This document shows positions 4,267 through 60,660 of a stretch of 64,000 nucleotides of DNA, piece after piece. Each line of letters begins with the position of its first letter. Position 1 is the stretch's first letter. A program made the position numbers and the translations under genes. Source of the stretch: an uncultured Planctomycetia bacterium. Its GTDB lineage: Bacteria; Omnitrophota; Gorgyraeia; 2-02-FULL-51-18. The stretch lies in contig CAYSKO010000002.1 of NCBI GenBank assembly GCA_964431835.1, forward strand, positions 137,632-201,631. Direction: 5' to 3'. The notes beneath the pieces were generated by a model that was not told the DNA's origin, did not search any database, and saw only the letters and a program-made list of their open reading frames with translations.

Positions 4267-4275
4267 GATTTCCTT

Positions 4276-14048: not shown

Positions 14049-14049
14049 G

Positions 14050-32278: not shown

Positions 32279-33361
32279 GTTCACGGCGATGCGCTCGGCC
32301 GCTTTTCCGTCCCATCCCCGCGGCACGCGAGTCTTCTTCCATTTCCCGGCGATCGCTTTCCGCGCCGCCGCGACCACGACCTTCACGTCCGAACCCACGA
32401 GCACGTTCGTCCCCTCTCTCACCGTGACGGGCCGCTCGGTGTTTTCCCGCATCGTCAGGCACGGAACACCAAGTTTCGTCGTCTCTTCCTGAATACCGCC
32501 CGAGTCGGTGAGCACGAAAGCACTTTCCTTTACGAGCTTGAGAAAATCCGTGTAGCCGAGCGGCTCGATCATCCGAAAACCCGGTAAGGCCGCGAAGCGT
32601 TTTCCGAGACCGTGCGATTCGATCATCTTCCGCGCGCGCGGATGGACGGGATAGAGAACCGGCGTCAGACGCGCGATGGACTCGAAGATCGAAAGGATCT
32701 TAAGGAGAGCCGCCTTCGTGTCCACGTTCGAGGGCCGGTGCATCGTCACCACGGCATACCCCTTCGGCCGGAGCCCAAGGCTCGCGACCACGCGCGATCT
32801 CTCGATGGCGGGAAGTCCCGCGACTAGGCTGTCGATCATCACGTTACCGTCGAAAAAAACCCGTCTCGCCGGAATCCCCTCGCGTCTCAGGTTCCGGATG
32901 GCACTCTCCTCGGTCACATAGAGAAAATCCGACAGGCGGTCCACCGCGATCCGGTTGATTTCTTCGGGCATCGCCCTGTCGAAGCTGCGAAGTCCAGCCT
33001 CGACGTGCGCGACCGGCACCTGCATCTTGGCAGCGGCAAGGGCGCACGCGAGTGTCGAATTCACGTCTCCCACCACGACGATCGCATCCGGACGCTCCTT
33101 AAGAAGCGTCCGCTCGAAAAGCTCGAGCACCTTCGCGGTTTGAGCGCCATGCGTTCCGGAACCGACCTCGAGATGCACGTCCGGCTTCGGGATGCCAAGG
33201 TCCCGGAAGAACACCCCCGACATCTTGAAGTCGTAGTGCTGTCCGGTGTGAACGAAGACGACCTGGAAGCGCTTTCGGAGCGCGCGGATGAGCGGCGCGA
33301 CCTTAATAAAGTTTGGCCGCGCCCCTGCCGCCACCACGACCTTCAAGCGCCGCCGTTTCAC
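32237..33361 (-). CDS. UDP-N-acetylglucosamine 2-epimerase (WecB family), paralog 3
   Basis: (V)KRRRLKVVVAAGARPNFIKVAPL...HTGQHYDFKMS...DVNSTLACALAAAKM...HVEAGLRS. GTG overlaps the upstream stop (GTGA). The 3' end overlaps the convergent plus-strand gene by 42 nt. Confidence 0.8.
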   Translation of the reverse strand: MKRRRLKVVVAAGARPNFIKVAPLIRALRKRFQVVFVHTGQHYDFKMSGVFFRDLGIPKPDVHLEVGSGTHGAQTAKVLELFERTLLKERPDAIVVVGDVNSTLACALAAAKMQVPVAHVEAGLRSFDRAMPEEINRIAVDRLSDFLYVTEESAIRNLRREGIPARRVFFDGNVMIDSLVAGLPAIERSRVVASLGLRPKGYAVVTMHRPSNVDTKAALLKILSIFESIARLTPVLYPVHPRARKMIESHGLGKRFAALPGFRMIEPLGYTDFLKLVKESAFVLTDSGGIQEETTKLGVPCLTMRENTERPVTVREGTNVLVGSDVKVVVAAARKAIAGKWKKTRVPRGWDGKAAERIAVNLERSLVASQAGRT

Positions 33362-34650
33362 GTCACGCTCCCCAGCCGCGGCCGGATGCGAGCGCGGTAC
33401 AGCGAGAACGCGAAGTAGGCGCACAGGACTGAGAACCCGAGGCGCGCGAGAGCGACAAACTTGCCCCAGGGAAGGAACCTCTCCATGACCTCATGAAGGC
33501 TCGGCAACGAGGAAAAGAACACGGGGTCGAGCGGAACGAGAAGCCCGAGGTTCATCGCGCGCGAATCGAGATTGAAAAAGAAAAGAAAACCAACCATTGC
33601 CGCGGAAAGCGGGTACACCCACGGCTCGCCCTCGTCGAAGCGCGCGAGAATCCAGAAAGGCAGTGCCCAAAGGACGTAGTGAACCATTGTCACGGACGTC
33701 GCGTAGAGCGCAAAAAGGACGGCGAGCGCCGTGCACGCGAAGAGACGCCCTCTCTCGATGTCCGACAAGGTGCCGGGAGCGCGACAGACTCGCACAAAAA
33801 GGAACAAGTAAAAAAGAAGGAACGCCGTTTTTAAAGCGATAGGAAGGATCCCGGGGGCGTGCACGAACATCCCCTGCGTCGCCGCGCCGACCACGACCGG
33901 CGAAAAATAGGCATGAAGAACGAGGCCTCCGGAGGAGATCGCCAGCGGCGCCACGACCAGAAGAGGAAACACCGCGAAGCAAAGCGCAAGCTCCGTCCGC
34001 TCCCTCCATCCTCGCCCCAGAATCATGAGGGCAGGCGGCAGAAGAAGCATCGGATAATTCTCGAGGCACGCCGCTGCGCCCGCCAGGACGAACGCCGCGT
34101 GCTTGCGTCTTGAACGCAGCGCCCAGAAGAAGACCCACCAGCACGCAGCCGAAAGGACCCGGTACTGGCCGAACGCGTAGGTGGAGAAAATCAGGATCGG
34201 GTCGAAGAGCCACCCGCGGAGCGCTTTTTTCCGTCGGTCGGGGGCAAAAGCGTGCCACAAAGCGGCGCACGCCAGCACATCCGCGAAGAGGTACGGAAGC
34301 TTCATGAGGAAAACGCGCCGGAGAAGCGCCGGCTCGGGGGAGCCCAGATACACCGCGATGGAGCGTCCGCCCTCGCGCATAAGCGCGTCCGTGCGGACCA
34401 TGAACTCGGCGAAGCCCGGATCGAGCGGTATAAGAAGTATCTGAAATAAACCAATGAGGAAATACGCCAGCGGCGGATAGTACGTGAAGCCGTGACGCAG
34501 ATACGTGTCCCCCAGATGCCCGTAAACGTCCCACACCCCGTGGAGACTGAGAAACGACGGGAAATACTGGATGAATAAGATATCCGCGTGGAGGGTCGCT
34601 GGCATCAGCGCCAGGCGCAGGGCGAGCGCCGCCGCGAGAAGTTTTTTCAC
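33358..34650 (-). CDS. Polytopic membrane protein of unknown function (candidate GT-C-like glycosyltransferase or polymerase). Paralog of the membrane half of 29507..30871.
   Basis: 10 or more TM helices; conserved FGQYR...HAYFSPVV blocks shared with the chimeric ORF. Confidence 0.6.
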   Translation of the reverse strand: MKKLLAAALALRLALMPATLHADILFIQYFPSFLSLHGVWDVYGHLGDTYLRHGFTYYPPLAYFLIGLFQILLIPLDPGFAEFMVRTDALMREGGRSIAVYLGSPEPALLRRVFLMKLPYLFADVLACAALWHAFAPDRRKKALRGWLFDPILIFSTYAFGQYRVLSAACWWVFFWALRSRRKHAAFVLAGAAACLENYPMLLLPPALMILGRGWRERTELALCFAVFPLLVVAPLAISSGGLVLHAYFSPVVVGAATQGMFVHAPGILPIALKTAFLLFYLFLFVRVCRAPGTLSDIERGRLFACTALAVLFALYATSVTMVHYVLWALPFWILARFDEGEPWVYPLSAAMVGFLFFFNLDSRAMNLGLLVPLDPVFFSSLPSLHEVMERFLPWGKFVALARLGFSVLCAYFAFSLYRARIRPRLGSVT

Positions 34651-38050: not shown

Positions 38051-39049
38051 TCACACCCCCGCGCCGGTGCGCTTCCTGCCGATCATCACGAAGAAACCGC
38101 CCTCGCGGTCCGCCGTCAGGAGCATCCCCGTCTCGACCAGGAGGCGTTCGAACCCGGTGCCCGGCACGGACGGCTCGAAGAGCCGCTCGTCGTCGGTGAC
38201 GGACTCGAACGGGCGCGTCTTGGGGATCGAGCTCACGAAATCGACGCCGCTCTCCTCGAACCACCGGAGCACCTCGCCGAAGGTGTGTTTCGACTCGTGC
38301 GGGTTCTTGTACTGATCCATGAACCAAGTGCGCTTGCGCGTTTCGCTCAACTTCTCCCTCTTGATACGGGGGTCTAGAAACTGGAAGCGATTGCCGGTGG
38401 CGTTGAAGATCGCCCGGCGGACGTCGGTCGGGATGCGGCTGTACGCGTGGTAGAGGCCGATAAGGACGTGTCCGCCCGGCTTCGCGAGGCGGAGTATCGA
38501 GCGGAAAGCCAGATACGGGTCCGCTGTGTGGTGCAGGACCCCGTTCGAAATGACGAGGTCGAACGATTCGCGCGCAAACACCGGCCGGAACAGGTTCATC
38601 TGGCAGAACGACACGTTCTCGATCTCATTGCGGGTTTTGAACGCCTGTGCGAGACGCAGTGAGTTGAGGCACATGTCGGCGCCGATTACCTGCCGGCCAC
38701 CGGTGATTCCAAGGAAATTGCTGAGCTGGCCCGTGCCGCAGCCGCATTCAATCACGCGCGCGCCGTTGGGCAGCTGCTCGTCAAGAAGCCGGGCGAGAAC
38801 TCCCTTCTCGGCCTTGTCGCGAAGCGTCGCTACAGAGTCGATGTCCTCGTAGTTCGGGAACGGCGTCTCTTCGTAGAAAGCTTTCATGGCCTCGGTGACG
38901 TCGGCCCTGCCGTCCCAATCGTTCGGAAGGAAGAAGAGCGGGATCCCCGCCTCGGAAGTGAACGCTTTGCCGCAGGCCTTGCACGAGAAACCGGCGCCTT
39001 CGCGTGCGAGGACGCCCTCGCAAGCGGGGCAAAAAAGAGATGGGTTCAC
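38051..39049 (-). CDS. Class I SAM-dependent methyltransferase with N-terminal CxxC...CxxC zinc-ribbon
   Basis: CPACEGV...CKACGK; VIECGCGTGQLSNFL (motif I). GTG start. Confidence 0.75.
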   Translation of the reverse strand: MNPSLFCPACEGVLAREGAGFSCKACGKAFTSEAGIPLFFLPNDWDGRADVTEAMKAFYEETPFPNYEDIDSVATLRDKAEKGVLARLLDEQLPNGARVIECGCGTGQLSNFLGITGGRQVIGADMCLNSLRLAQAFKTRNEIENVSFCQMNLFRPVFARESFDLVISNGVLHHTADPYLAFRSILRLAKPGGHVLIGLYHAYSRIPTDVRRAIFNATGNRFQFLDPRIKREKLSETRKRTWFMDQYKNPHESKHTFGEVLRWFEESGVDFVSSIPKTRPFESVTDDERLFEPSVPGTGFERLLVETGMLLTADREGGFFVMIGRKRTGAGV

Positions 39050-39141
39050 GCGAAAAAAAACGTCCCCTGTTTTTTCATCTGAACATTATGTCCGAAGAGC
39101 CGGAAATTGCCAAACAGAAAGAGACGGGAATCCGAGGAGGC

Positions 39142-42100
39142 TTAGATGGGAACGGAAGCTGTTGCCGCGGCCGAAGCCGCGGATTCATTGTCCGCCGCGT
39201 CGAGCGCGAGGACGGAATAGGAGTACGAGGAGCCGCGCGCGACCGTGCGGTCGACGTAGGTGGGACTTTCCGTCGAGCCGAGAGCCGCGCCGTTACGGAG
39301 CACCCGGTATCCCGTCACGCCGACGGCGTCCGAAGAAGCCAACCAGTCGAGACCGACGACCGCGGTATTGACTCCCGGTTCCGTCACCGGCCGTGTCATT
39401 TTGTAAAGAGAGGCGTCGGCGCGGACATCGGCCAGGGCCTGAACGGGATGGGCCGAGGCGCTCGCGTCGGTGAAGGCGCGCGGTTCGGCGGCGCGCAAAA
39501 GCAGGCGTGTCGACGCGTCCGGATCGGACGCGAGCGTAGGCGGCGTAAACGGAACGTCCCAGCGCGCCAGACCGCGCGTAACGCGGAAGCCGTCCAGACG
39601 GCCGCCCAGATGCGTGATGCGGTCGTCGCGGTAATCGAGACAGCCCACTACGAAGGGTCCGGAGTAATCAGGATACGGATCGGGGTCGACGCCGCTCGCC
39701 TTCTCGACGCCGTCGCGGAATATTTTCCAGGTCGAACCTTTGCGCACGAGCGCCAGGTGGTACCACGTGTTGGGCGCGATCGAATCGGGCGCCACGAGCT
39801 TGGAGCCGTAAGTGAACACCTGCATCCCGGCGTTGAAGGTCCACTGGCGGCCGTTCCATTCGAAGCGCATGTAGTCGACACTTGAATTGCCCTGCGAGAA
39901 GATCGCCTGGATCGCCGAGACGTTGTCGAAGCGCGCCCAGAAGTCGATCGTCAGATCGTCGGAGGCGAGGTTCCAATCTGGGGCGTCGGCGAAGACGAGC
40001 GCGTCGCCCTGCCCATCGAAGAAGATCGAGGTGCCGGGCGCTTCGGCGGGGACCTGGGGAGTTTCCTCGGAAGCGGCGGCGCGGAGGTTCGCGGGGACGG
40101 TCGGGGCGGCGGTGTCGGTCCCTAGGGTCGCGGCGTTCACGGCCGCGCTAGGCGCACTCTCGTTCTGCGCGTTGTCGACGGCCGTGACGCGGTAGGAGTA
40201 CACCTGCCCCGGCGTCACGCCGGTGTCGGCGTAAAGCGTGACGAGCGTATCGAAAGAACCGGCCAGCTGTCCGTCCCGGAAAATCTTGTAGGTCGCGACG
40301 TCCCGTTCGGGGCTCGCCGCCCACGTGACGAGAATCTCGCGGGCTCTCGCCTGCGCGGCGAGCGAAGTCGGGGCCGCCGGAGACGTGACGTCCGGAATGG
40401 TGACGGTCACCGCCGCGCTCGAGGCGGACACGTTGCCGGCCGCGTCGTGCGCCTTCAGGAAATAGGAATAGGCGTTCCCGTCGGTCACGCCGGCGTCGAC
40501 GTACGACCGCGAAGCGGTCTGCGCGATCTGCGCATTGTCGCGGAAAATACGGTAGCCCGTGACGCCGACGTTGTCGAGCGGGGCGTCCCATGCAAGACTC
40601 GCCTTCTTCACTTCCACGACGCCGTACGTGCGGATAGACGGGACCGAAGGCGCGGTGAGATCGGCGATCGTGAGCGAAACCGGACCGGCTTCTGGCGATT
40701 CGTTGTCCGCGGCGTCGAACGCCCGCACGGCGTACGCGTACGCGCGGCCGGGCACGCCTGTCGAGTCCCGGTAAAAAGCGACCGTCGAAACGCCGACGCG
40801 CACGCCGTCGCGGAAAACCCGGTACCCCGCCACGCCGCGGTCGTCGATCGAAGCGCTCCACGTAACGTCCGCGCTTTCGCCCGCCACCTGCCGCACTGCA
40901 AGATCCCCCGGAACCGACGGCGGAAGCGTGTCGTCCACGCCCGGGAAGCGCAGCTTGTAAGCAGAGCTCGCGTCGCGCGAGATCCAAAGCGTGTCGCCGT
41001 CGGGCGCGAACGTCATCGCGTTGGCGCCGGACCCGTTCGGGAGATTGAGGGTCAAGTCGTGCCAGGTGACGCCTGCGTCCTCCGAGAAGAAGATTTTGCC
41101 GGGCGCGTGGCCGTTCCACTTGACCGTACTCACCGCGATGCGCGACGGATTCGTCGGGTCGATGGCGATGCCGTCGCAGGTGCCGCTGCCTTCGAATTTT
41201 TTGAGAAGCCCCCACGATGTGCCCCGGTTGCGCGAAACGTAGAGCGCCGGGCCTCCCGTGTCCGCCGCGGCGTAGACCGTCCCCGCGGAATCGACCGCGA
41301 TGTCGAAGACGTAATTGCTCGCGCTGAAGACCTTCGACCAGTTGGCGCCGTAATTTTCGGTGCGGTACACGCCGCCCGCCGCGTCCCCAACCGTGCCCCA
41401 GTAGATGCGACTCGGCTCGAGCGGATCGACGGCGAGGCCGTTGTAAATTTTGAGCGACGCAGGCTGGGCCGCCCCGCGCGTCCACGCGTAGCCGCCGTTG
41501 GTCGAATAAAAGAATCCGCCGCCGTCCGTTCCGTCGATGCCCAGATAATACCGTGTGGGATCGACGGGATCGCGCGCGAGCGCGCGGGCGTAGCCTTTAT
41601 CCCAGACGACGGACGTGCGCGGGTAGGCCGCGGGAAGCCCGTTTTTCGTCTTCGTGAACGACGTGCCGCCGTTTTCGCTGATGAGAATCTGATTCGCCGC
41701 CCCGTTCCAGGGCGAATTGGTGGCCACGATCTTGCTTCCGTTCACGACGACCTTCCAGACGTGCCCCGCGATCGAATTGTCGTAACCCGCGCCAGGAATG
41801 ATCGCGCGGTACGTCGTGCCGCCGTCCGCGGAAACGGCCAGGCCGTTGTCCATCGTTCCGACGAACACGCGGCCGTCCGCACCGATGTCGATGTCCGAAC
41901 CGATCGTGTTGAAGGCGCCTTTGATGCGCTCGCGCCAGGTGACGCCCGCGTCGTCGGAACGCCATACGCCCCAGAAGTCGGCGAAATAAAGGACGTTCGA
42001 ATCGAAGGGATCAATGACGGCCGTAAGCGGCCAGCCGAAACCGGTCGACCACGCGCGCGTCGGATTGGAGGTGAGATCGTGCGAAAGGCCGCGCTCGACG

Positions 42101-43035
42101 CCGGTCCAGCTCAGGCCGCCGTTCACACTGAGAAGCGCGGTCCCGTTCCAGCCGTCGCGGCAGCCGACGAGGAGGCGCACGCCCTCCGGGCTCGTGGCGG
42201 CCGAAAGCCGGTACACTTCGCCCGCAGTGGGAAGATCGACGCTGTAGCGCCAGCTCGCGCCGTTGTCGGAGCTGATCGAAACGCGCGTGCCGCCCGCCAC
42301 GTAAATCGTGTTTCCGATGGACGCGATATCGAGCGCCCGCGGCGTCAAAGGCGACAGCGTCTCCCACGCGCCCGAGGCGACGGTGCAACGACGGAGCCCG
42401 TTGAACGCGCCCGCGAAAAGATAAACGCCGTCGCCGGTCAAGTGAAGGGCGCTGGCGGCGGCTCCGAGAGGGTTCCCCATGGACGCCCAGGTGACGCCGC
42501 CGTCGGACGAACGAAAGATCTCCCCGGTCTGCGTGCCCGCGAAGACGCGGTTGGGGTCCGACGGGTGCACGACGATCGAGCGGTAATCGTCGGGACGCTT
42601 GAAAATCACCCGGTTGCGGGTGGCTTCGAGAAAACGCCACTGCGTGCCCGCGTCGTCGGAGCGGTGAATGCCGATCGATGTCCCCGCGTACAGCACGTTC
42701 GGATTGGACGGCGCGACGGCGAGATTCACGATCTTGATGTTAATGAGCCCCTCGTTCTTCGGAACCCAGAGATTGCCGCGGTCGTCGCTGCGCCAGATGC
42801 CGCAGACGTCGGAAAGAAGATAGACGCGACCCGCTACCGAGGGGTCTGGAACGACCATGGGGTAGGCGCCGCCGCCGTACCAGCCCGCGAATTCCCATGC
42901 GAGTCCGGTCGGAAGCGCGCTCGCAGGCACGGCTCCGCCGACGAGGCACGACAAAACAAGGGCGGCAACGGCCGCAAGGGCAGGTCTTTTCACAGGGAAA
43001 GGGATTCTCCGAAAACGTACGGTAAGCGGAAACAT
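39142..43035 (-). CDS. Large secreted protein: signal peptide, about 12 BNR/Asp-box repeats (sialidase/sortilin-type beta-propeller), four FN3 domains, a LamG/concanavalin-like domain and a terminal FN3. A GTG start at about 42993 is probably the real one.
   Basis: Repeated S-x-D-x-G-x-T-W boxes (SDDRGNLW, SDDAGTQW, SSDGGVTW, SDNGASWR, SVNGGLSWT, ...). FN3-like PxxPxxL...W...Y repeats. LamG-like FDGQGDALVF...WYHLALV. The ORF's ATG lies inside a TATAAT box, so the downstream GTG (VKRPALAAVAALVLS...) with GGAGA Shine-Dalgarno is favoured. Confidence 0.75.
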   Translation of the reverse strand: MFPLTVRFRRIPFPVKRPALAAVAALVLSCLVGGAVPASALPTGLAWEFAGWYGGGAYPMVVPDPSVAGRVYLLSDVCGIWRSDDRGNLWVPKNEGLINIKIVNLAVAPSNPNVLYAGTSIGIHRSDDAGTQWRFLEATRNRVIFKRPDDYRSIVVHPSDPNRVFAGTQTGEIFRSSDGGVTWASMGNPLGAAASALHLTGDGVYLFAGAFNGLRRCTVASGAWETLSPLTPRALDIASIGNTIYVAGGTRVSISSDNGASWRYSVDLPTAGEVYRLSAATSPEGVRLLVGCRDGWNGTALLSVNGGLSWTGVERGLSHDLTSNPTRAWSTGFGWPLTAVIDPFDSNVLYFADFWGVWRSDDAGVTWRERIKGAFNTIGSDIDIGADGRVFVGTMDNGLAVSADGGTTYRAIIPGAGYDNSIAGHVWKVVVNGSKIVATNSPWNGAANQILISENGGTSFTKTKNGLPAAYPRTSVVWDKGYARALARDPVDPTRYYLGIDGTDGGGFFYSTNGGYAWTRGAAQPASLKIYNGLAVDPLEPSRIYWGTVGDAAGGVYRTENYGANWSKVFSASNYVFDIAVDSAGTVYAAADTGGPALYVSRNRGTSWGLLKKFEGSGTCDGIAIDPTNPSRIAVSTVKWNGHAPGKIFFSEDAGVTWHDLTLNLPNGSGANAMTFAPDGDTLWISRDASSAYKLRFPGVDDTLPPSVPGDLAVRQVAGESADVTWSASIDDRGVAGYRVFRDGVRVGVSTVAFYRDSTGVPGRAYAYAVRAFDAADNESPEAGPVSLTIADLTAPSVPSIRTYGVVEVKKASLAWDAPLDNVGVTGYRIFRDNAQIAQTASRSYVDAGVTDGNAYSYFLKAHDAAGNVSASSAAVTVTIPDVTSPAAPTSLAAQARAREILVTWAASPERDVATYKIFRDGQLAGSFDTLVTLYADTGVTPGQVYSYRVTAVDNAQNESAPSAAVNAATLGTDTAAPTVPANLRAAASEETPQVPAEAPGTSIFFDGQGDALVFADAPDWNLASDDLTIDFWARFDNVSAIQAIFSQGNSSVDYMRFEWNGRQWTFNAGMQVFTYGSKLVAPDSIAPNTWYHLALVRKGSTWKIFRDGVEKASGVDPDPYPDYSGPFVVGCLDYRDDRITHLGGRLDGFRVTRGLARWDVPFTPPTLASDPDASTRLLLRAAEPRAFTDASASAHPVQALADVRADASLYKMTRPVTEPGVNTAVVGLDWLASSDAVGVTGYRVLRNGAALGSTESPTYVDRTVARGSSYSYSVLALDAADNESAASAAATASVPI

Positions 43036-43056
43036 TATACCGCACCGCTGCCCTTT

Positions 43057-44745
43057 TTACGAGCTGAAAACGATCCTCTCTGGATTCACCTGGTAAATTT
43101 CAAGATACGGGCCGGGACGGACGCGCGAAAAAAGTTCCCGCGAACGGAACGGAAGCGCGACCCAAGCCCACTCATCTTCCGAGAATTTCTTGGCGGAATC
43201 CCGGTAGGGCGAAAAAACGGCGACGAGATTTCCGTCTTTCGGACCGAGCCCGGAGCCTTCGCCCGGATAGCGATAGCGGACGAGGTATTCTACCCTCTCT
43301 TTTTTCAACGCTTCGGGCGTCGGCTCGAGAAGCGGCGCCGTCCACAGGAAATCTGAATCTCCGGCGCCGGGTTCGCGCAGATAAAAGAGCCAGTACCGCT
43401 TCTCGCCGCCCGACGCGACCTCGACCCAGCCCAGCTTCCGGAGCTTGAGCGCCGCGTGGGGATCGTTCGCGTCCACGCGGGCGCGCTTCTCGGCGATCTG
43501 CTCGGACGTACGACGGAGCTTCGGCGAGAAAAAAGCGTGGTCGAACGCGATCGAGGTGCCTTCGGGAAGATTTTCGCGGATCCACCCCGATGCCAGGCGC
43601 CGCGTGTCCGGCCGCCGGGCGATCGAATCGAGATAAAACGTCTTCGTGAGCGGTTCGGCCGCCGCGAGCGCGAAAAGCGCCGCCGCGAGCGGCCGCACGA
43701 AACGCCGGGGCGAAGCCAGACCCTCGAACACCACGTACGCCGCGCCCAGACAGAGAAAAGGAACCAACGGTAACGCGTAGCGTTCGTACGGCTGGCTGAA
43801 CGCGCAAATGAACGCGAAATAGGCGGCTGGAAACACGAGGACCCAGCGCGAGGCGGCGCGTCGCACGCAAAGCAGGGCGAGCCCGGCGATCCCGAGCACG
43901 GTTCCCACCGCCCCGGAACCTTCGAAGAGCGAATATCCCAGATGATGCGACGGCGGAAAACTTCCCTCCGCTCCGGCCTGCGTGAGGATTTCTTTCATGA
44001 AAAATCCGAAATCCAGGATCGAAAACGGATTGAGCGCCGCATATACGCCGAACGTAACTGCCGCGCATGCCGCCAGCGCCGCAGCCGGGCCTTTCTCTGC
44101 GTACCCGTGTTTCTTCCAAACGAGAAACGCCAGTGGCAGGACGAGCGGTGCCGCCGTGTATTTGAACGCCACCGCCGCGCCGGCCCACGCCGCCGCACGC
44201 CATGCGTCCCCGCGGCGGCCGCAATCCGCGTACGCGGCGAGCGCTCCCGCGGAAACAAGAAGCGTGAAGATCATCGGAATGTCGGCGTAGATGTAGTGCG
44301 AATCGCGCGCGTGCAGGAAATTCACGGCCAGGAGCGCCGCCGCGGCGAGTCCGGTCGCGGAGCCGAAAAGGCGCTCGCCGAGACGGTAAAGCGCCCAAAC
44401 CGATGCGGTCCCGGCGAGCACCCCCAAAACGAGCCGGCCGGCGAGGTAAAACGCCGTCGGATCCCGGAAGAACGAGACGGCGAACGCCTCGCGCGTCGCG
44501 CCTGCGAGTGCGGCAAACGCGTACAACGCGCCGTAGACGACGAAGAGGCAGTACGAAGCGAGCGGCGGGATCTTGAAGAAATGCGGGTGGAAATCGCCGG
44601 AGGCGTACGCGAGTGCGTGATTCACGACGATCGGCTCGTCCTGATGCAGGAGATCCGGCAGGCCGAATCCGATCCCCGCGACCCGCAGAGCGAAAGCGGC
44701 GGCTAGAACCGCCCATAGAAGGAGCGTCGGGACCCGTCCGCTCAT
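43057..44745 (-). CDS. GT-C membrane glycosyltransferase (PMT_2/ArnT-like)
   Basis: MSGRVPTLLLWAVLAAAFALRVAG... about 11 TM helices plus a C-terminal soluble domain. ATG overlaps the upstream stop (ATGA). The R-rich ORF extension to 45249 is not credible. Confidence 0.7.
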   Translation of the reverse strand: MSGRVPTLLLWAVLAAAFALRVAGIGFGLPDLLHQDEPIVVNHALAYASGDFHPHFFKIPPLASYCLFVVYGALYAFAALAGATREAFAVSFFRDPTAFYLAGRLVLGVLAGTASVWALYRLGERLFGSATGLAAAALLAVNFLHARDSHYIYADIPMIFTLLVSAGALAAYADCGRRGDAWRAAAWAGAAVAFKYTAAPLVLPLAFLVWKKHGYAEKGPAAALAACAAVTFGVYAALNPFSILDFGFFMKEILTQAGAEGSFPPSHHLGYSLFEGSGAVGTVLGIAGLALLCVRRAASRWVLVFPAAYFAFICAFSQPYERYALPLVPFLCLGAAYVVFEGLASPRRFVRPLAAALFALAAAEPLTKTFYLDSIARRPDTRRLASGWIRENLPEGTSIAFDHAFFSPKLRRTSEQIAEKRARVDANDPHAALKLRKLGWVEVASGGEKRYWLFYLREPGAGDSDFLWTAPLLEPTPEALKKERVEYLVRYRYPGEGSGLGPKDGNLVAVFSPYRDSAKKFSEDEWAWVALPFRSRELFSRVRPGPYLEIYQVNPERIVFSS

Positions 44746-45947
44746 CCGGAGACGATCCGGTCCGTCAAATGCTCCGCGAACGCGAGGCTCGACGTGAACG
44801 CCGGTGACACCGCGTTCAGAACGTGCGTTGAACGCTCGGCGCTCTCGACGATGAAATCGTTCACGAGACGGAGTGTCGACTTTTCCACAAGCTGGGCGCG
44901 CAGGCCCACCCGGTCGAACGGCACGAGATCGCGCGGGCCGATCCGCGGCAGAAGCTCGCGGGCCGATTTCAAAAAGCCGCCGGGCGTGTAACGCGGAGCC
45001 TCGCGGAAAACGAGATTCCGGAAACCGTCCGGGTTGCGCGCGAGCATTCGTACGACGTCGCGGGCCATCACGAACGAATCCCGCACGTCGAGGCCCTTGA
45101 ACACGCCGTAATTCTCGCGGCCGAATGCGGGAATCGCCGTCGGGCCGACAATCACGTCTCCATGCACGTCGCGGAGCGCCTGCGCGCCCAGAAAAGGCAC
45201 ACGGGGGTCCGGCACCGTGTAAATGATCCCGCGCACGCCTTCCCCGCACGCCGAGCCGGGACGGATTTTTTTGTAGAGACCCTTGAACGGCAGAATGCGG
45301 TACCGTCCGCCCGCTCCGAAGAGCGACGCGACCCGGTCGGCATGGAGACCGGCGGCGTTCACGAGATGGCCGAACGCGAAACGATCGCTGCCCGCCGTCG
45401 CCTCCCCTTTTCCCGGATCGACGGCATGAAGTTCGGTGGATTTGAACACGTCGACACCCAGCGCCGTCACGTCGGCTTCGAGGTGGCGAATCACGTCGTG
45501 CGGATCAAATACGGCCGTGTCGGGAGACCAGATCGCTTTGCCGCAGGTGCGTGCCTCAGGCTCGATATCCGTCAAACGTTTTTCGTCGATCAGCTCGACC
45601 CGCACGCCGTTCTTCACCGCGCGCTCGTAGAGGCGATCCACTTCGGGCGCGGCGGCCGGCGTCGGTGCGACGACGACTTTCCCGCAGGAACGCAGCGTGA
45701 ATCCAGCCGCCGCCGCGTATTCGCGCATCATCCGGTTGCCTGCCAGGCAAAGCTTCGCTTTGAAGGAGTCGGGGGCGTAATAGAGTCCGGCGTGGAGGAC
45801 GCCGCTGTTTCGGCCGCTCGTGTGAACACCGAGCGCGGGTTCTTTTTCGAGGAGGACGACGGTGCCGAGCTTCCGCCGCGCGATCGCGCGCGCCGCGGTC
45901 AGGCCGACGACGCCGCCGCCGACGACGAGGAAATCGCAGGTCTTCAA
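44742..45947 (-). CDS. FAD-dependent oxidoreductase (L-2-hydroxyglutarate oxidase/LhgO-like, DAO family)
   Basis: (L)KTCDFLVVGGGVVGLTAARAIA (GxGxxG dinucleotide fold)...VLLEKE. TTG start chosen to avoid overlap with the divergent gene. Confidence 0.65.
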   Translation of the reverse strand: MKTCDFLVVGGGVVGLTAARAIARRKLGTVVLLEKEPALGVHTSGRNSGVLHAGLYYAPDSFKAKLCLAGNRMMREYAAAAGFTLRSCGKVVVAPTPAAAPEVDRLYERAVKNGVRVELIDEKRLTDIEPEARTCGKAIWSPDTAVFDPHDVIRHLEADVTALGVDVFKSTELHAVDPGKGEATAGSDRFAFGHLVNAAGLHADRVASLFGAGGRYRILPFKGLYKKIRPGSACGEGVRGIIYTVPDPRVPFLGAQALRDVHGDVIVGPTAIPAFGRENYGVFKGLDVRDSFVMARDVVRMLARNPDGFRNLVFREAPRYTPGGFLKSARELLPRIGPRDLVPFDRVGLRAQLVEKSTLRLVNDFIVESAERSTHVLNAVSPAFTSSLAFAEHLTDRIVSG

Positions 45948-46007: not shown

Positions 46008-46027
46008 ATCGCGGTTATAATGGAGAC
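46008..46027 (+). promoter_or_regulatory. TATAAT -10 box 6 nt upstream of the suhB-like ATG (leaderless-type)
   Basis: GGTTATAATGGAGAC-ATG. Confidence 0.45.
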
Positions 46028-47660: not shown

Positions 47661-48368
47661 TCAGGATGTCTCCGGGGACAGCGTCTTCACGAACTTAGCG
47701 GGCGTGCCGGCGAAGAGACAATTCGGCGGGACTTCCGCCCCCTTCGGCAGGACCGAGCGGGCCGCGATTACGGCGCCGTCTCCGATGACGCAGCCCGGCA
47801 TGATGACCGCTCCGAGACCGATCGTGACCTTGCGCCCGATACGCGTCGGCCTCAGTTTCAATTTTCCCCGCTCGGCCAGGTGCCCCAAAACGACCGCGTC
47901 GCCTCCGATGACCGTGCCGTCACCGATTTCCAGCATCGAAACGTCCGCGAGACCCTTCGAGTTGATCTGGACGCCCCGGCCGATTCGGGCGCCCATGAGC
48001 CGGTAATAGAGGGGCAGAAGCGGCGTCAGGCGCATGAAATCCATGAACGTCAGATTCACGATGAGCATCATCGCGTTGACGAACGCCCACACGAAGCCGT
48101 TCCAGGTGAAGAACCCGAATTCCCCTTCCTTCAAGCGTGCTCCCAGCACGAAACGAAGAAGGACGGTGAGCGCGGCCAGCGTAAGACCGAATAAGAAATA
48201 ACCGAACCCCGCCCCGGCGCCGAGCGCGAGCGCCCGACAAATCAACGACCCGGAAACGGAATACTTCCAAAGCGCAAGCGTCAGGACGAACGCGGGCGTC
48301 AGCGCAACGGTCAAAAGACAGCCGCCCAGCGAATACATGAAGAGCGTGAACGCCCACTGGCCCAGCAC
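47661..48368 (-). CDS. Membrane protein with four N-terminal TM helices fused to a C-terminal hexapeptide-repeat (left-handed beta-helix) acyltransferase domain
   Basis: TM region followed by IGDGTVIGGDAVVLG...IGLGAVIMPGCVIGDGAVIAARSVL (hexapeptide repeats). Confidence 0.6.
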   Translation of the reverse strand: MLGQWAFTLFMYSLGGCLLTVALTPAFVLTLALWKYSVSGSLICRALALGAGAGFGYFLFGLTLAALTVLLRFVLGARLKEGEFGFFTWNGFVWAFVNAMMLIVNLTFMDFMRLTPLLPLYYRLMGARIGRGVQINSKGLADVSMLEIGDGTVIGGDAVVLGHLAERGKLKLRPTRIGRKVTIGLGAVIMPGCVIGDGAVIAARSVLPKGAEVPPNCLFAGTPAKFVKTLSPETS

Positions 48369-48379
48369 GAGCGATGGTT

Positions 48380-48802
48380 TCAGGCGAGTTTGGCGTCCAG
48401 CGTGATTTCCGCTTTGAGAAGCTTCGAAATAGGGCAGCCCGTCTTCGCCGCTTCCGCCGCCTTCTCGAACGCCGCTTTATCGGCGCCGGGCGCCGAGACC
48501 TTCGAATCGAGATGCACTTTGGTCACCGTCCACCCCGCGTCGAGTTTCTCGAGCGTGAGCGACGCCGTCGTCTCCACGCTCTGCGGAACGATGTTCGCGC
48601 CGCCGAGCTGCGCCGAGAGCGCCATCGAGAAGCAGGCCGCGTGCGCCGCCGCGATGAGCTCTTCGGGGTTCGTGCCCTTGCCGTTCTCGAAGCGGGTGCC
48701 GAAGGAATACTGCGTCTTATCGAGAACGCCGCTCTCCGAGGAGACCGAGCCCTTACCGTCTTTTAAGCCGCCTTGCCAAACCGCCGATGCTTTTCGAATC
48801 AT
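48380..48802 (-). CDS. OsmC/Ohr-family peroxiredoxin-like protein
   Basis: ...AACFSMALSAQL...TGCPISKLL (the two conserved Cys of OsmC). GGAGG Shine-Dalgarno. Its promoter is in repeat copy A. Confidence 0.85.
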   Translation of the reverse strand: MIRKASAVWQGGLKDGKGSVSSESGVLDKTQYSFGTRFENGKGTNPEELIAAAHAACFSMALSAQLGGANIVPQSVETTASLTLEKLDAGWTVTKVHLDSKVSAPGADKAAFEKAAEAAKTGCPISKLLKAEITLDAKLA

Positions 48803-48834
48803 GGGATACGACCTCCGTTTTAAATGCGTGTGCT

Positions 48835-48906
48835 TTATTTTAACACGGGAAGAACGAAAGGGCTTATACGTTCGTGCGCGGACGGCCGCCGAGGACGAAG
48901 GGGTTC
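48835..48906. repeat. Direct repeat copy A (about 72 bp; 3 mismatches versus copy B). Contains a remnant of 13 codons (NPFVLGGRPRTNV-stop) plus an extended -10-like TGTTAAAAT.
   Basis: ttattttaacacgggaagaacgaaagggcttatacgttcgtgcgcggacggccgccgaggacgaaggggtt. Confidence 0.8.
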
Positions 48907-48913
48907 CGCTTGG

Positions 48914-50020
48914 TCACGCGAAGAATTTCCGCACGCAATCGGCGGCGTGCAGTGCTTCCTCCCGGCGGAGCTCGGGGTACATCGGCAGCGAGAGCGACTT
49001 CGCGGACGCTTCTTCGCTGAAAGGGAAATCGCCGGGCTTGTGCCCGAGCGGCGCGTAGCAGGGTTGAAGGTGGAGCGGGAGCGGATAATAGACGCCGTGA
49101 CCAATCTTCTTCTCGGTCAGATGCGCGGCGAGCGCGTCGCGCCGGTCGGTCCGGATCGTGTACAGGTGGTAGACGTGTTCGTATCCCTCGGGAACGGCCG
49201 GGGTCTCTAGCGGCAGGCCGCGTAGCGCCTCGTCGTAGATCGCGGCGAGCGTGCGGCGCTTCGCGTTCCACTCGTCCACGTATTTCAGCTTCACACGCAC
49301 CACAGCCGCCTGCAATTCGTCCAGCCGGCTATTGATGCCGACGATCTCGTGGTGGTATTTCTTCTTCGAGCCATGCACGCGCAGAACGCGCAGGCGCGCG
49401 GCGAGCGCGTCATCGTTCGTCGTGATCATGCCGCCGTCTCCGGCGCCGCCCAGGTTCTTCGTCGGGAAGAACGAGAGGCATCCAGCCGACCCGATACCGG
49501 CGGTCATGCGGCCGCGGTGGCGCGCGCCGTAGGACTGCGCGGCGTCTTCCAAAACCGCGATTCCCCTTTTTTCCGCGATCGCCTGGAACGCGTCCATGTC
49601 GGCGGAAAGGCCGAAGAGATGGACCGGAACGACGGCTTTCGTGCGCGCCGTGAATTTCGCCTCGGCCTTCGCAGGGTCGAGGTTGAAGGTCTCCGGGTGG
49701 ATGTCGGCGAAGACGGGTGTCGCGCCGGTGCGCGAGATCGATCCCGCGGTCGCGAAGAAAGTGAACGGCGTCGTCACGACCTCGTCGCCGGGGCCGACGC
49801 CGAGCGCCCAAAGGGAGAGATAGAGCGCGTCGGAGCCCGAAGCGACGCCGATCGCGTGCTTCACGCCGACGCGGGCGGCGATGTCCTTTTCAAGACCTTC
49901 GACGTTCTCTTTCAGGATGAACTGCTGGGAGTCGACGACGCGGGCCAAGGCTGCTTTCACTTCGTCGCCGATCTTCGCCTTCTGCTCGGTGAAATCGATG
50001 AAACGGACTCCCCTGCTCAC
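48914..50020 (-). CDS. DegT/DnrJ-family sugar aminotransferase (WbpE-like candidate). Paralog of the partial gene at 63025..64000.
   Basis: (V)[41 protein letters not shown]...[22 protein letters not shown]...HG. GTG overlaps the acetyltransferase stop (GTGA). Confidence 0.85.
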
Positions 50021-50595
50021 GCTTCGCCCTTCACGCCGGCCTTCGTCTTCGAGAATTTCGCGCCGCACCGGTTGCACACGGTTTTCTTGCCCGCGAAACG
50101 CAGGCGTTCGCCACAGGAGCACATCCAGCCGGCGACGCGGGCCGGAGACCCGAGAACGAGCGCATGGTCCGGTACTTCCCTCGTGACCACCGATCCGGCG
50201 CCGATAAAAGAGTAACGGCCGAGAGCGACGCCGCAGACGATCGTGCTGTTGGCGCCGATCGTCGCGCCCTTCTTCACGACCGTCTTCCCGTATTCGTTCT
50301 TACGAGAGACGTGCGCGCGCGGGTTCTTCACGTTCGTGAACACGCAGGAGGGGCCACAAAAGACATCGTCTTCGAGGACGACGCCGTCGTAGAGAGAGAC
50401 GTTGTTCTGGATCTTCACGCGGTCGCCGACGACGACGCCCTTGGCGACGAATACGTTCTGGCCGATCACACAATCGCGGCCGAGCGACGCGCCGTCCATC
50501 ACGTGGCAAAAATGCCACACTTTGGTCCCGTCGCCGACGGAGGCGCCGGGATGGACTTCGCTCGACGGATGGACGTAAAAAGGTCGCTTAGACAT
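50017..50595 (-). CDS. Hexapeptide-repeat N-acetyltransferase (WbpD/PglD-like candidate) with C-terminal Cys4 zinc-ribbon
   Basis: Left-handed beta-helix repeats ([24 protein letters not shown]...) and C-terminal [23 protein letters not shown]. Confidence 0.8.
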
Positions 50596-52485: not shown

Positions 52486-54846
52486 CTATCGGGCGGATCT
52501 TCGCAAGGCGCGAAGCGCGAGAAAGACGAGAGCGAGAACCCATCCCGCGGCGGCGGCCCATTCGCAGCCACGCACCGCTGCGGAGACCGGCCGGTGAAAA
52601 AGAATCTCGTGGCGGCCGGACGGCACCCACGCCCCCATGAACGCGTGGTTCACTCGAACGAGTGGCACGGCATTCCCGTCGAGCTCGGCTCGCCAGCCGG
52701 GGTAATGGCTTTGCGAGAAAACGCAAAGCGCCACCGACTTCACGTCCAGGAGCGCTTTCACGAAGTCCGGCCGTCGAGTGAGTATCCGCGCGTGAACCAT
52801 CGGCGCGTCGTCGATCGGAGGAAGCGGCGGCGGCACGTCGTCCGTTTCGACGACCGCCTCGAGCTTCGGAAGAAAATCGGGACCCTTCAAATGCGCAAGG
52901 CGCCGCGAAACGTCGGTCATCGCCTGCCAGCGGTAAACGGCATACACGAGCGGCGACACGCCCGCGTTCTCGTAAAGGAAGCGGCCGCCCGCCTCGTCCA
53001 GAAGCCGGAACCCTCCCATCGACAGCTTTTCGTCGGAGACGGCAAGCCCCACGCCCAGCGAATCGATGAGCCCGCTCTGCCGGCCCCATGTCTCTGCCGA
53101 CAGCGGAAAACGCCCGAGCGAAGCGTCGGAAATGCCGAGCTCCTTCGTGAGCGTGTAGTGGCGCTCGAGGAGAAGAGGCGAATAAGCGCCGGGATGCGAG
53201 AGTCCGTGCAGCATGTTCATGCTCGGTTCGAGGAGCGCGGGTTCACGGCGCGCCCACTCGATCACGCGGCCCGCCCCGAAGCGAGGTGCTTCCTTCCCGG
53301 CCAACTCGACCGCCGCGTGCGCCTTCGCGGGCGGATAGGGCTTGGCGTTCTTGACGAAACCGGTGCTAAAGGCGGCGCCCGTCGCCGCGAGATCGAGCGT
53401 GACGAGAGCGGCTAACCCCCACGCCAGAGCTTCGCGCCGGTCCGCGCGTCCCGCGGCCGCAAGGAGAAGCGCTGCCGTAAGGAGCCCAAGTGCTCCCGCG
53501 TACAGATTCCAGGGGTTCAGCGGACGAACGACGTCGGCCGCCCGCGCGAGCGTCGACCGCACGGTCGCGTGATACTCTTCCACGGGCTTCATCTTGTCCG
53601 TCTTCGACGCGTAAGCGGCGTCGGCGAGACTCCGGCCATATTCGGCGATCTTCGGTTCCGCCGCACGGTAAGTGGCGGACGCCGCGGACGGCAGGAGCAC
53701 GCACAGCGCGGCGAGCACCGCGATCGCCCTTCTCTGCCCCTTCAAGAGAGGCCCGGCGAAGGTTTTCGCGAAACCGAAACCGGCCAGCACCGCCAGGGAC
53801 GCCAGGGTGAAAAAGAGGAACTTCGAGGGATTCCGGAGCGCGGTCAGCGGCAGTCGCTCAACCGCCAGCGCGTAGAGCGGGTTGTATTTGCCGAACGCCA
53901 GGAGAAGAAAAAGAAGCGCGGTCCACGCGTGCGCGCGTTCGACCGGCGTCTTTCTGGAAAAAAGCGCGGCAGCCGCGAGAAAAAGCGGCGCAATGCCCAG
54001 GAAAAGCGTGACACGCAGAAGCGGGCCCCATTCGGGGAACAAAAAAGATGCGAGTGCGGGCGGCGGAAGCGATCCCCAAAGCGCGAAGGCGCTGTCGGCG
54101 CCGGCGCGGGCGGATTCACCTGCGAGCTCGAGCGTTTGAAGGATCTGCGGCGACGCGAGGACGAAGCCCACGAGCGCACCGACGGCGAGGACCGGAAGCG
54201 TGCGTTGGCGGCCGGGCTCGAGAGTGGTCAGAACGAGAACGTAGAGCGCCGCGTACGCGGCCGCCTGCGGAAAACCGCCGGTCCCCATAAGCCCAAAACA
54301 GACACCCGCACCCGCCGCCGCCGCGCCGAGTCCGGCCGCATTCGGTGCGCGGCGCGCGGCGTCGAGCGCCAGGAGCGTCCACGGCACCCACGTCAGCACG
54401 CGGAGCGTGCCCATCGTGTAAAAACACCCGCCGTAACCGCTCGAGAACGAAAAAACGACTGCGGCCAGAGCGGCGGCGCGTTCCCCGAGGCCGATCCGCC
54501 GTCCGTAAACGTAAAAACCGATGCCCCCCACCAAAAGATGCGCCGGCACCGTCCAGGAATACGCGGCCTTGAACGGCAGAAGAAGGAAAAAAAGAATATT
54601 CGGTGGATAGTACGCCGCGACTTGGCCCTCGGCGACGAGCGGAAAACCGCATGCGATGAGATCGGTCCAGTACGGGAGCGTTCCCTGTTTCAGGCTCTGG
54701 GAGAGCGCGAGCGCCCACGGATGGAACTGGACGCCATTGTCCCCCACCAGGAAAGCCGTCCGGACGAGAAGGAGGGGTCCCGTGAAAAAAACGAAGAGCG
54801 CGCCGAAGAAAAGGAGGAAGAAGGCGTGGCGGCGGAGAAAAATCAT
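52486..54846 (-). CDS. YfhO-family large polytopic membrane protein (GT-C-like glycosyltransferase implicated in envelope glycosylation)
   Basis: MIFLRRHAFFLLFFGALFVFFTGPLL... more than 12 TM helices plus a C-terminal domain; paired with a DPM1-like GT2. ATG overlaps the upstream stop by 1 nt (TGATG). Confidence 0.65.
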   Translation of the reverse strand: MIFLRRHAFFLLFFGALFVFFTGPLLLVRTAFLVGDNGVQFHPWALALSQSLKQGTLPYWTDLIACGFPLVAEGQVAAYYPPNILFFLLLPFKAAYSWTVPAHLLVGGIGFYVYGRRIGLGERAAALAAVVFSFSSGYGGCFYTMGTLRVLTWVPWTLLALDAARRAPNAAGLGAAAAGAGVCFGLMGTGGFPQAAAYAALYVLVLTTLEPGRQRTLPVLAVGALVGFVLASPQILQTLELAGESARAGADSAFALWGSLPPPALASFLFPEWGPLLRVTLFLGIAPLFLAAAALFSRKTPVERAHAWTALLFLLLAFGKYNPLYALAVERLPLTALRNPSKFLFFTLASLAVLAGFGFAKTFAGPLLKGQRRAIAVLAALCVLLPSAASATYRAAEPKIAEYGRSLADAAYASKTDKMKPVEEYHATVRSTLARAADVVRPLNPWNLYAGALGLLTAALLLAAAGRADRREALAWGLAALVTLDLAATGAAFSTGFVKNAKPYPPAKAHAAVELAGKEAPRFGAGRVIEWARREPALLEPSMNMLHGLSHPGAYSPLLLERHYTLTKELGISDASLGRFPLSAETWGRQSGLIDSLGVGLAVSDEKLSMGGFRLLDEAGGRFLYENAGVSPLVYAVYRWQAMTDVSRRLAHLKGPDFLPKLEAVVETDDVPPPLPPIDDAPMVHARILTRRPDFVKALLDVKSVALCVFSQSHYPGWRAELDGNAVPLVRVNHAFMGAWVPSGRHEILFHRPVSAAVRGCEWAAAAGWVLALVFLALRALRRSAR

Positions 54847-55583
54847 CAGACCGCGGCCTCCGCCGCAAAGGTCGGAACGGTCGTGGGTCCTCGGCCGAGG
54901 CAGGTCGTGGCGAACGCGTAGAAAAACCAGCGCAAGTACACCGGCATCCACTTGAAGAGCCGGAAGCGGCTGCGGCCGCTTTCCCGCTCGAACCATAGGG
55001 CGGGCGTTTCTTCCACCTTCCAGCCCAATCGGTGCGTTTTCACCAGAAGTTCCACGCTGAACGCCCACCCCTCGGTGGATTCAACGCGGACGGTCTTTAA
55101 GACTTTCGAAGAAAAGAGACGGAAGCCGTTCGTCGGGTCGTGCGTGGGCACGCGCGCCGCGTGGTAAAGCACGAAAGCCGCGGTCCGCACCAGAACGGCT
55201 TTCACGAGCGGGCAGCCCTTCATGCAGCCGCCCGGCATGAAACGGCTTGCCGCGACGATGTCCGCACCCGCACGGAAGCGCGCGATCATTCCGTCGATGA
55301 TTCCCCCGTTGTACGAATCATCGGCGGGAAACGCGATCAAGGCCGGGGCGGAGCTCTTGCGAAACCCGGTCATCACAGCGCCGTGCACGCCTCGACCCTC
55401 GTTCTTCACGCGGACGATCTCGAAGGGCGCGGAATAAGCATCCAGAACCGGCAGCGTGTCATCTTCGTCGCGGTCGTAGCAGACGAGGACGCGGAACGGC
55501 GAGTGTACGGCCGCTTTCAAATGGTCGAGCACCTTGACGATGCCCGTCCCCTCGTTGTAGACAGGGATCAGGATATCAATCAC
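54846..55583 (-). CDS. Polyprenyl-phosphate sugar synthase, GT2 (DPM1/CsbB/GtrB-like)
   Basis: (V)IDILIPVYNEGTGI...VLVCYDRDEDDT... GTG overlaps the upstream stop (GTGA). Confidence 0.8.
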   Translation of the reverse strand: MIDILIPVYNEGTGIVKVLDHLKAAVHSPFRVLVCYDRDEDDTLPVLDAYSAPFEIVRVKNEGRGVHGAVMTGFRKSSAPALIAFPADDSYNGGIIDGMIARFRAGADIVAASRFMPGGCMKGCPLVKAVLVRTAAFVLYHAARVPTHDPTNGFRLFSSKVLKTVRVESTEGWAFSVELLVKTHRLGWKVEETPALWFERESGRSRFRLFKWMPVYLRWFFYAFATTCLGRGPTTVPTFAAEAAV

Positions 55584-58865: not shown

Positions 58866-58885
58866 CCGGATAGATCCGCGCTTGC

Positions 58886-60112: not shown

Positions 60113-60660
60113 CGCGCTCCCCGGCGCTCCCCCTCGGGCGCCATGCGTCCGCGGGCCACCGCGAGCGCCAGCACCGAGAGGTTCAGCGAGTGATCGAAGC
60201 GCCCGTCGCGCACCGCGCGCCAAAAAGCGGACCGCGTCACCGTCTCGACGCGGATTCCGGCCTCAGGGCCCTTCGAACGAGTGGATAGTTTAACATCGGG
60301 TGCGAAATAACACCATAAGCGGTTGGACATCCGGCCCATGTCGGTCGCGAGGACCCCGATGAATTCGAGCCGCCGCGCCTGGTAACCGGTCTCCTCCAGA
60401 AGCTCGCGCTTGATCGCGCGCTCCGGCTTCTCGCCTCGCTCGACCATTCCGCTCGGGAACTCGAGCGTCCTACGCTCGACCGCCGCACGAAACTGGCGCA
60501 CGAGGACGATCTTACCCTCTGCGGTGACGGGGATCACGGTCGAATAATCGCCGAGCGCGAGCGAATAATAGGCATCGCCCTTTTCACCGGTGACGGTTTT
60601 TGCGACCACCCTGAACCAGGCGGTCTCGAACACGGTCTCGCGCTTGGAAATACGGCTCAA
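60109..60660 (-). CDS. NUDIX hydrolase
   Basis: GMVERGEKPERAIKRELLEETG (Nudix box). TTG start overlaps the upstream stop (TTGA). Confidence 0.7.
   Translation of the reverse strand: MSRISKRETVFETAWFRVVAKTVTGEKGDAYYSLALGDYSTVIPVTAEGKIVLVRQFRAAVERRTLEFPSGMVERGEKPERAIKRELLEETGYQARRLEFIGVLATDMGRMSNRLWCYFAPDVKLSTRSKGPEAGIRVETVTRSAFWRAVRDGRFDHSLNLSVLALAVARGRMAPEGERRGAR

Follow-up and report, generated by a model that had tools for sequence, protein, structure and literature searches.

A secreted GH74-like double-propeller protein that probably acts on the polysaccharide of its own glycan-biosynthesis locus

We analysed a 64,000-nucleotide stretch of DNA (the window) from an uncultured Planctomycetia bacterium placed by GTDB in the Omnitrophota (assembly GCA_964431835.1, contig CAYSKO010000002.1, positions 137,632 to 201,631) and found that the window as a whole is one mostly same-strand glycan locus, in which an open reading frame (ORF) on the minus strand (39142..43035) lies embedded and co-oriented with the biosynthesis genes. 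This ORF, which we confirmed as a real gene, comprises 1297 amino acid codons and a stop codon, and we conclude that its product is probably a secreted glycanase resembling glycoside hydrolase family 74 (GH74), fitted with fibronectin type III (FN3) spacers and a LamG binding module and acting on the polysaccharide of its own locus. The original prediction, made from the DNA letters alone, had described a secreted protein of about 1300 amino acids with an Asp-box propeller, four FN3 domains and a LamG domain, an outline that was borne out by the length, the signal peptide and the domain annotation; its proposals for function, a nonulosonic acid (NulO)-specific glycosidase or an S-layer-like glycoprotein substrate, are weighed below against the GH74-like glycanase.

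The module that carries this conclusion spans amino acids 44-690 (40966..42906, minus strand; numbered from the ATG of the ORF) and was delineated by AlphaFold2 modelling, Foldseek, profile comparison and hhalign. A relaxed pattern finds exactly 12 Asp-boxes in it (at amino acids 83, 126, 176, 255, 303, 360, 402, 453, 511, 559, 601 and 651), the number that had been estimated beforehand. Pfam assigns Sortilin-Vps10/BNR across the first ~690 amino acids, with the Sortilin-Vps10, BNR and PSII_BNR models matching the same repeats, as well as fn3-type domains and Laminin_G_3. The AlphaFold2 model, which covers amino acids 37-700 and was built on 62 homologs, displays two tandem beta-propellers with a predicted local distance difference test score (pLDDT) of 95.8 and a predicted TM-score (pTM) of 0.94. 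When this model was compared with the PDB by Foldseek, ranks 1-25 were all occupied by GH74 structures (E ~1e-26 to 1e-31, TM-score 0.60-0.81), including 6P2K ('AFV00434, an ancestral GH74 enzyme'), and the TM-scores of other PDB double propellers were at most 0.5. The family profile likewise matched GH74 chains over nearly their full length (E 1.5e-66 to 4e-48), as opposed to sortilin with E 1e-23 and sialidases with 1e-11 or worse in repeat regions only, and hhalign of the close clade against ClGH74a returned a probability of 99.7% (E 5e-26) over 550 aligned columns. GH74 enzymes are built from two seven-bladed propellers with a cleft between them (PMC9103125), and our model points to the same fold, with two tandem seven-bladed propellers and an interfacial cleft. 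The expectation of one or two sialidase- or sortilin-type propellers thus held for the presence of two propellers in tandem, but their type is that of GH74 and not that of the six-bladed sialidase.

Both catalytic Asp residues of GH74, one per propeller, have counterparts in the protein. Asp76 (codon 42808..42810, minus strand; 'LLSDVCG') aligns with the first, D35 of OXG-RCBH ('ARTDIGG'), and Asp396 (codon 41848..41850, minus strand; 'GTMDNG') aligns with the second, D465 of OXG-RCBH ('AMGDQG' in ClGH74a), a residue within the motif 'GD(Q/I)G' that differs between 1SQJ (D) and 2EBS (N; D465N). In a 62-sequence alignment (A1) the two Asp occur together, as in the nearer relatives, or are both missing, as in generic BNR double propellers. 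Conservation was then gauged by an exhaustive hidden Markov model search of 1.84 billion representatives, after which 51 full-length relatives were aligned pairwise; of the ~50 representative clusters, 42 of 43 retain D76 and 47 of 49 retain D396. A third Asp, D353 ('DxWG'), is conserved in the nearest subclade only. By alignment, D76 and D396 are the likely equivalents of the GH74 catalytic pair, and the check for sialidase catalytic residues that had been suggested turned up this pair and, of the sialidase motifs, only an 'RIP' in the n-region of the signal peptide.

Set beside the characterised GH74 enzymes ClGH74a (6P2M), CtXgh74A (2CN2), Geotrichum OXG-RCBH (1SQJ) and AFV00434 (6P2K), the protein is alike in its two tandem Asp-box propellers, predicted to be seven-bladed with a cleft between them, in sequence homology at the profile level, in both catalytic Asp positions, in secretion and in accessory FN3 or carbohydrate-binding-like modules. 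It differs in a shorter module (~650 versus 700-760 amino acids), and thus shorter loops, in having 12 instead of 9 Asp-boxes (4+5; PMC2716378), in a sequence identity of 16-20%, in the additional clade-specific Asp353 and in the context of its clade, which is polysaccharide biosynthesis, including a fusion to glycosyltransferase family 26 (GT26), as opposed to plant-cell-wall degradation. Sortilin Vps10, Ycf48/HCF136 and 'WD40/YVTN/BNR-like repeat' proteins match the same Pfam repeat models, but they lack Asp at the equivalents of positions 76 and 396 and give much weaker profile scores.

The close relatives link this module to exopolysaccharide assembly. The closest homologs, 38-60% identical over the propeller module (38-50% by BLASTP), have named sources in Candidatus Eisenbacteria, Candidatus Omnitrophica and a Planctomycetales metagenome-assembled genome; the close clade amounts to ~50 clusters at 50% identity, with one close relative among 185,579 species-representative genomes. 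A glycan-biosynthesis context was found for 8 of 9 close-clade loci including the one in the window (7 of 8 homolog loci), with same-strand glycosyltransferase genes directly ahead of the propeller gene in P0002, P0004, P0005, P0007, P0008, P0011 and L008, and the order Wzy-GT2-WecG(GT26)-propeller recurs in four loci. P0002 (locus L001) follows genes for GT4/flippase, GT2, GT2, GT4, Wzy, GT2-WecG and a paralogous propeller. P0007 (L004) comes after flippase, pyruvyltransferase, GT2s, GT4, Wzy and GT2 genes, its own propeller being fused to WecG, and P0008 (L005) after pyruvyltransferase, GT2s, GT4, Wzy, GT2 and WecG genes with no flippase called. The fourth, L008, runs from Wzz/GNVR, acyltransferase, flippase, GT2s, GT4, Wzy and GT2 genes to WecG and the propeller, with no pyruvyltransferase. 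Elsewhere, P0004 (L002/L003) lies among Wzy, Wzz/GNVR, Poly_export, ABC, MBOAT/AlgX and PMT genes, P0005 (L088) after GT2, pyruvyltransferase and GT2 genes, and P0011 (L090) after GT2, GT4 and GT4 genes; the context of P0006 (L089) is uninformative.

The coupling to WecG is in part physical. P0007 (L004 10001..12832) and P0012 are fusions of a WecG/TagA/CpsF (GT26) domain, a transmembrane helix and a GH74-like double propeller, an arrangement by which the propeller is extracytoplasmic and linked to the GT26 enzyme, and in L005 and L008 the WecG and propeller genes are separate and overlap. In L008, from the Planctomycetales genome, the propeller itself is split into two overlapping ORFs (9872..11167 and 11047..11946), reflecting either a frameshift or an assembly error. 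Tandem propeller paralogs occur in L001 (7303..9693 and 9935..14293), L005 (9950..12148 and 12194..13387) and L089 (1332..4001 and 4099..6180); the window holds a single copy.

Known self-glycanases offer a functional parallel. Exopolysaccharide producers encode glycanases for their own polymer, such as ExoK/ExsH and BcsZ (PMC4443731). BcsZ (GH8), ExoK (GH16), ExsH and PslG (GH39) resemble the GH74-like clade in that the gene for an extracytoplasmic hydrolase lies inside or at the end of a biosynthetic operon, and in the expected trimming, release or molecular-weight control of the product; their folds and GH families are unrelated to those of the protein described here. Our literature search found no GH74-like member of this class, nor a precedent for GH74-like or BNR propellers in Wzy-type exopolysaccharide operons.

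In the mechanism that we envisage, the two propellers would be arranged as in GH74, with the substrate cleft between them holding a bulky, probably branched, polysaccharide chain, and Asp76 and Asp396, at the GH74 acid/base positions, would bring about inverting endo-hydrolysis. The three tandem FN3 domains would serve as spacers and the LamG domain, nested in a fourth FN3 domain, probably as a carbohydrate-binding module. Since the genes of the closest relatives stand at the end of Wzx/Wzy-type exopolysaccharide operons, and a transmembrane helix joins some of the proteins to GT26, the most likely substrate is the polysaccharide of the own locus, and the role of the enzyme may be trimming, release or chain-length control of that polymer, as with BcsZ, ExoK/ExsH or PslG. 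More speculatively, and with doubts that outweigh our confidence, the close clade may represent a new family that derives from GH74 and is devoted to Wzx/Wzy-dependent exopolysaccharide assembly. Its members would work in the periplasm or at the surface, in physical association with a GT26 (GumM-like) backbone glycosyltransferase, and would cut or release the nascent branched polymer, or serve as factors for chain length or transglycosylation, instead of being degradative; the protein in the window would then be a secreted variant, extended by FN3 and LamG domains, that was recruited into a glycan island rich in GT-C glycosyltransferases and containing NulO genes. GumM, of the GT26/WecB family, forms the beta-1,4-Glc linkage in the xanthan backbone (PMC4443731).

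The part downstream of the propellers is made up of FN3 and LamG domains, delimited by Pfam and PDB sequence matches, modelling and alignment. FN3 domain 1 (amino acids 698-789; 40669..40944), domain 2 (790-881; 40393..40668), whose best PDB sequence match is the FnIII domain of chitinase A1, and domain 3 (882-969; 40129..40392) follow one another on the minus strand. Next come a segment matching strand A of FN3 domains 1-3 in the alignment (970-990; 40066..40128; model block pLDDT ~92), a LamG/concanavalin-like domain with its flanking linkers (991-1217; 39385..40065; Pfam core 1009-1152, Laminin_G_3 at 60.5 bits, E 2.8e-16) and the remainder of FN3 domain 4 (1218-1297; 39145..39384), which forms the C-terminus and ends in '...ATASVPI'. 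The LamG domain thus appears to be inserted in the A-B loop of FN3 domain 4 (amino acids 970-1297; 39145..40128), a nesting that is based on sequence alignment and on the local pLDDT, not the coordinates, of a C-terminal model of moderate quality (pLDDT 74.5). In this model, three FN3 domains, a lone strand at amino acids ~982-990 and the FN3 remainder are predicted with confidence, the LamG domain is of moderate confidence, and the linker between it and the FN3 remainder is disordered. The expected tandem FN3 domains followed by LamG are therefore present, but their order is three FN3 domains and a fourth split by LamG. The four FN3-like repeats share 36-45% pairwise identity and resemble FN3 domains of bacterial carbohydrate-active enzymes (chitinase A1 FnIII and exoglucanase CbhB). 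Neither an SLH domain nor a C-terminal sorting signal (LPXTG, PEP-CTERM, T9SS CTD or MYXO-CTERM) scored above threshold in Pfam and NCBIfam, so that the sorting signal typical of generic adhesins, which had been named, together with a lack of catalytic-site residues in the blades, as evidence against the original proposal, was not seen.

The protein begins with a predicted signal peptide (amino acids 1-40 from the ATG; 42916..43035, minus strand), recognised from the hydropathy profile and the sequence, with a hydrophobic core at amino acids 18-36 and a predicted cleavage site A-S-A40|L-P. This is the only hydrophobic segment of the protein and it is followed by an A-x-A site, features from which export by Sec as a soluble protein is predicted, in keeping with the extracytoplasmic location of self-glycanases. 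Homologs carry Sec signal peptides of 20-35 amino acids directly ahead of a W(E/Q)FAGW motif, and others have N-terminal anchors or a transmembrane helix after a cytoplasmic WecG domain. The pattern V-L-S-C30 is a possible lipobox that may make the protein a lipoprotein, although its Cys is not conserved among homologs. Export by Tat through 'RFRRIPF' is unlikely: the h-region is strongly hydrophobic, homologs have no twin arginine, and the motif is present only with the ATG start.

The start codon itself was also in question, as the ATG (43035..43033) overlaps by two bases a TATAAT hexamer (43034..43039, minus strand), which had led to the proposal that the true start is a GTG at about 42993. 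The overlap, the GTG (codon 15; 42991..42993, minus strand), with GGAG 13 nucleotides upstream, and the 26-amino acid signal peptide that it yields are all real, but the hexamer is not a significant promoter signal on its own: TATAAT occurs 3 times in the window versus 1.79 ± 1.21 expected, a count reached in 22 of 100 shuffles, and at 43034..43039 there is no acceptable -35 and no extended -10, nor is the site among the matches of a two-hexamer promoter scan. In-frame alternative starts are GTG15, TTG28 and GTG36. Because the conserved W(E/Q)FAGW motif lies 25-36 amino acids from the start in homologs, its distance of 33 amino acids from GTG15 fits better than that of 47 from the ATG, and the spacing mildly favours GTG15, which is thus a plausible start. 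A survey of ribosome-binding sites of the genes in the window was uninformative for starts, and longest-ORF starts are unreliable. Since the upstream gene ends 21 nucleotides before the ATG, read-through transcripts could use the ATG or GTG15, and both lead to the same ASA|LP cleavage site and hence to the same mature protein. The GEM catalogue contains an identical protein, P0001 (1262 amino acids), whose gene call begins at V36 (GTG, 42928..42930); this is a probable start-site mis-annotation, because a call from V36 removes the whole signal peptide. A plus-strand ORF (40447..43356, 969 amino acids) overlaps the gene and is probably a non-coding shadow frame, since domains and homologs were shown for the minus-strand frame, the only one tested. 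In a window of 63% GC, the three TATAAT hexamers (1754..1759 and 43034..43039 on the minus strand, 46016..46021 on the plus strand) all lie at gene boundaries, which hints that some may be real -10 elements. The sole two-hexamer match within 38900..43400 is a promoter-like TTGGCA-17-CATAAT (39085..39113, minus strand; 10 of 12 matches) in the 92-nucleotide gap between the stop codon of the propeller gene and the downstream methyltransferase gene.

Immediately upstream lies a gene for a PMT_2-type GT-C membrane glycosyltransferase with ~9 transmembrane segments (43057..45249, minus strand), and the two genes are probably co-transcribed, as only 21 nucleotides separate its stop codon from the ATG. 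On the downstream side, genes for an S-adenosylmethionine (SAM) methyltransferase, an SGNH hydrolase, a carbamoyltransferase and a UDP-GlcNAc 2-epimerase follow the 92-nucleotide gap. Further upstream are WbpA/B/E/D-like genes, a C-methyltransferase gene and GT2 genes. Two segments on the minus strand, 47661..50122 and 57840..60223, encode UDP-sugar dehydrogenase, GFO/MocA oxidoreductase, DegT aminotransferase and hexapeptide acyltransferase, a set that we take to resemble the WbpA/B/E/D route to 2,3-diacetamido-uronic acids. The NulO genes, at 15-22 kb, include NeuB (21108..22145), PseB- and PseC-like, GNAT/formyltransferase and CMP-transferase genes and a flippase-like gene. They adjoin a pair of HisF-like (His_biosynth) and HisH-like (GATase) genes (12628..14048, minus strand), an arrangement used elsewhere for acetamidino modification of sugars; by this analogy, the pair suggests a modified nonulosonic acid. 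There are four PMT/PMT_2 GT-C genes in the window (4276..6156, 22441..23934, 43057..45249 and 60657..62282, all on the minus strand) and a weak YfhO-like one at 52486..55068; two of the four directly follow GT2 genes (23915..25204 and 62279..63619), and the set suggests several periplasmic glycosylation steps that depend on polyprenyl-phosphate sugars. In this locus, a candidate for a Wzy-like polymerase or ligase is a 430-amino acid protein with ~7 transmembrane-like segments and no Pfam match (33358..34650, minus strand).

Several observations weigh against a GH74-like glycanase that acts on the polysaccharide of its own locus. Identity to characterised GH74 enzymes is low, as given above, a single-sequence search matches only AFV00434 (6p2k) over 140 amino acids (47-186, E 8.5e-11), and the NCBIfam glycosylhydrolase model F510_1955 stays below its cutoff (131 versus 175 bits); all NCBIfam matches, including this one and the FN3 region of exoglucanase CbhB, are sub-threshold. 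Two of three HMMER alignments shift the second Asp by one column because an insertion begins right after the site, and it is hhalign and a downstream D-x-G-hydrophobic motif that place Asp396 in register with the second GH74 Asp. The proximity of Asp76 to Asp396 and the geometry of the cleft are deduced, not read from model coordinates. The locus in the window is without the Wzy-GT2-WecG signature and is rich in PMT_2 GT-C genes instead, and a sister clade (33-35% identity) keeps both Asp yet lies outside biosynthetic loci, P0013 and P0020 being found near esterases, a deacetylase, a GntR regulator or a GH38 gene. This sister clade would suit a catabolic enzyme, a secreted GH74-type endo-glucanase or xyloglucanase for environmental plant or microbial beta-glucans whose position in a glycan locus is incidental, as would the fact that the characterised GH74 structures which the protein in the window resembles all degrade xyloglucan or beta-glucan and that FN3 plus carbohydrate-binding-like modules are typical of secreted degradative enzymes. 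We nonetheless consider such a role quite unlikely, as 8 of 9 close-clade loci are same-strand glycan-biosynthesis arrays, the propeller gene of relatives overlaps or is fused with the preceding WecG gene, and the gene in the window has neither a sugar transporter gene nor a regulator nor another catabolic GH gene beside it.

A non-catalytic surface or matrix protein (a lectin, an adhesin or an S-layer-like protein), perhaps glycosylated by the adjacent PMT_2 GT-C and using its propellers only to bind glycan, would account for the GT-C gene 21 nucleotides upstream, one of at least four in the locus, and for the large size, the FN3-rich architecture, the LamG domain and the 10 N-x-S/T sequons that the suggested sequon check brought to light; sortilin and Ycf48 exemplify the many Asp-box propellers that are not enzymes. 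It is unlikely in view of the near invariance of both GH74 catalytic Asp in the family, as opposed to generic BNR propellers that lack both, and of the GT-C adjacency, which is not conserved (no GT-C within 10 kb in L001, L004, L005, L008, L088 and L090). The same non-conservation and the lack of an SLH domain, sorting signal or anchor by Pfam and NCBIfam speak against a sorted adhesin and leave the proposed S-layer-like glycoprotein substrate unsupported. As for a NulO-specific glycosidase of the sialidase or pseudaminidase type acting on a NulO-containing product, the Asp-box repeats, which GH33 sialidases and the Pseudomonas pseudaminidase share, and the NeuB, PseB/PseC-like and CMP-transferase genes in the same 60-kb array are what such an enzyme would lead one to expect. 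However, those enzymes have a single six-bladed propeller with 3-5 Asp-boxes, an Arg triad and a Tyr/Glu nucleophile, whereas the protein has a GH74-type tandem seven-bladed pair with an Asp/Asp pair, its sialidase matches are weak and confined to repeats, and no NulO genes, neither NeuB nor CMP-transferase, were found in the homolog loci inspected. In the window, the NulO genes belong to the same glycan gene array, as had been pointed out, but are at least 17 kb away, the immediate neighbours being the PMT_2 GT-C, SAM methyltransferase, SGNH hydrolase and carbamoyltransferase genes. Thus, a glycosidase linked to a glycan locus is what remains of that proposal, and its NulO specificity is very improbable.

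The GH74-like glycanase reading corrects a likely mis-annotation of such proteins as sialidase, as 'photosystem II stability/assembly factor-like' or as generic BNR protein. It would also provide a testable candidate for exopolysaccharide processing or release in poorly studied phyla (close relatives have Planctomycetales, Candidatus Eisenbacteria and Candidatus Omnitrophica as named sources). What is known of GH74 concerns almost exclusively the degradation of plant xyloglucan, and a divergent branch that is wired into exopolysaccharide loci, retains the catalytic pair and is sometimes fused to GT26 would widen the biology of this family.

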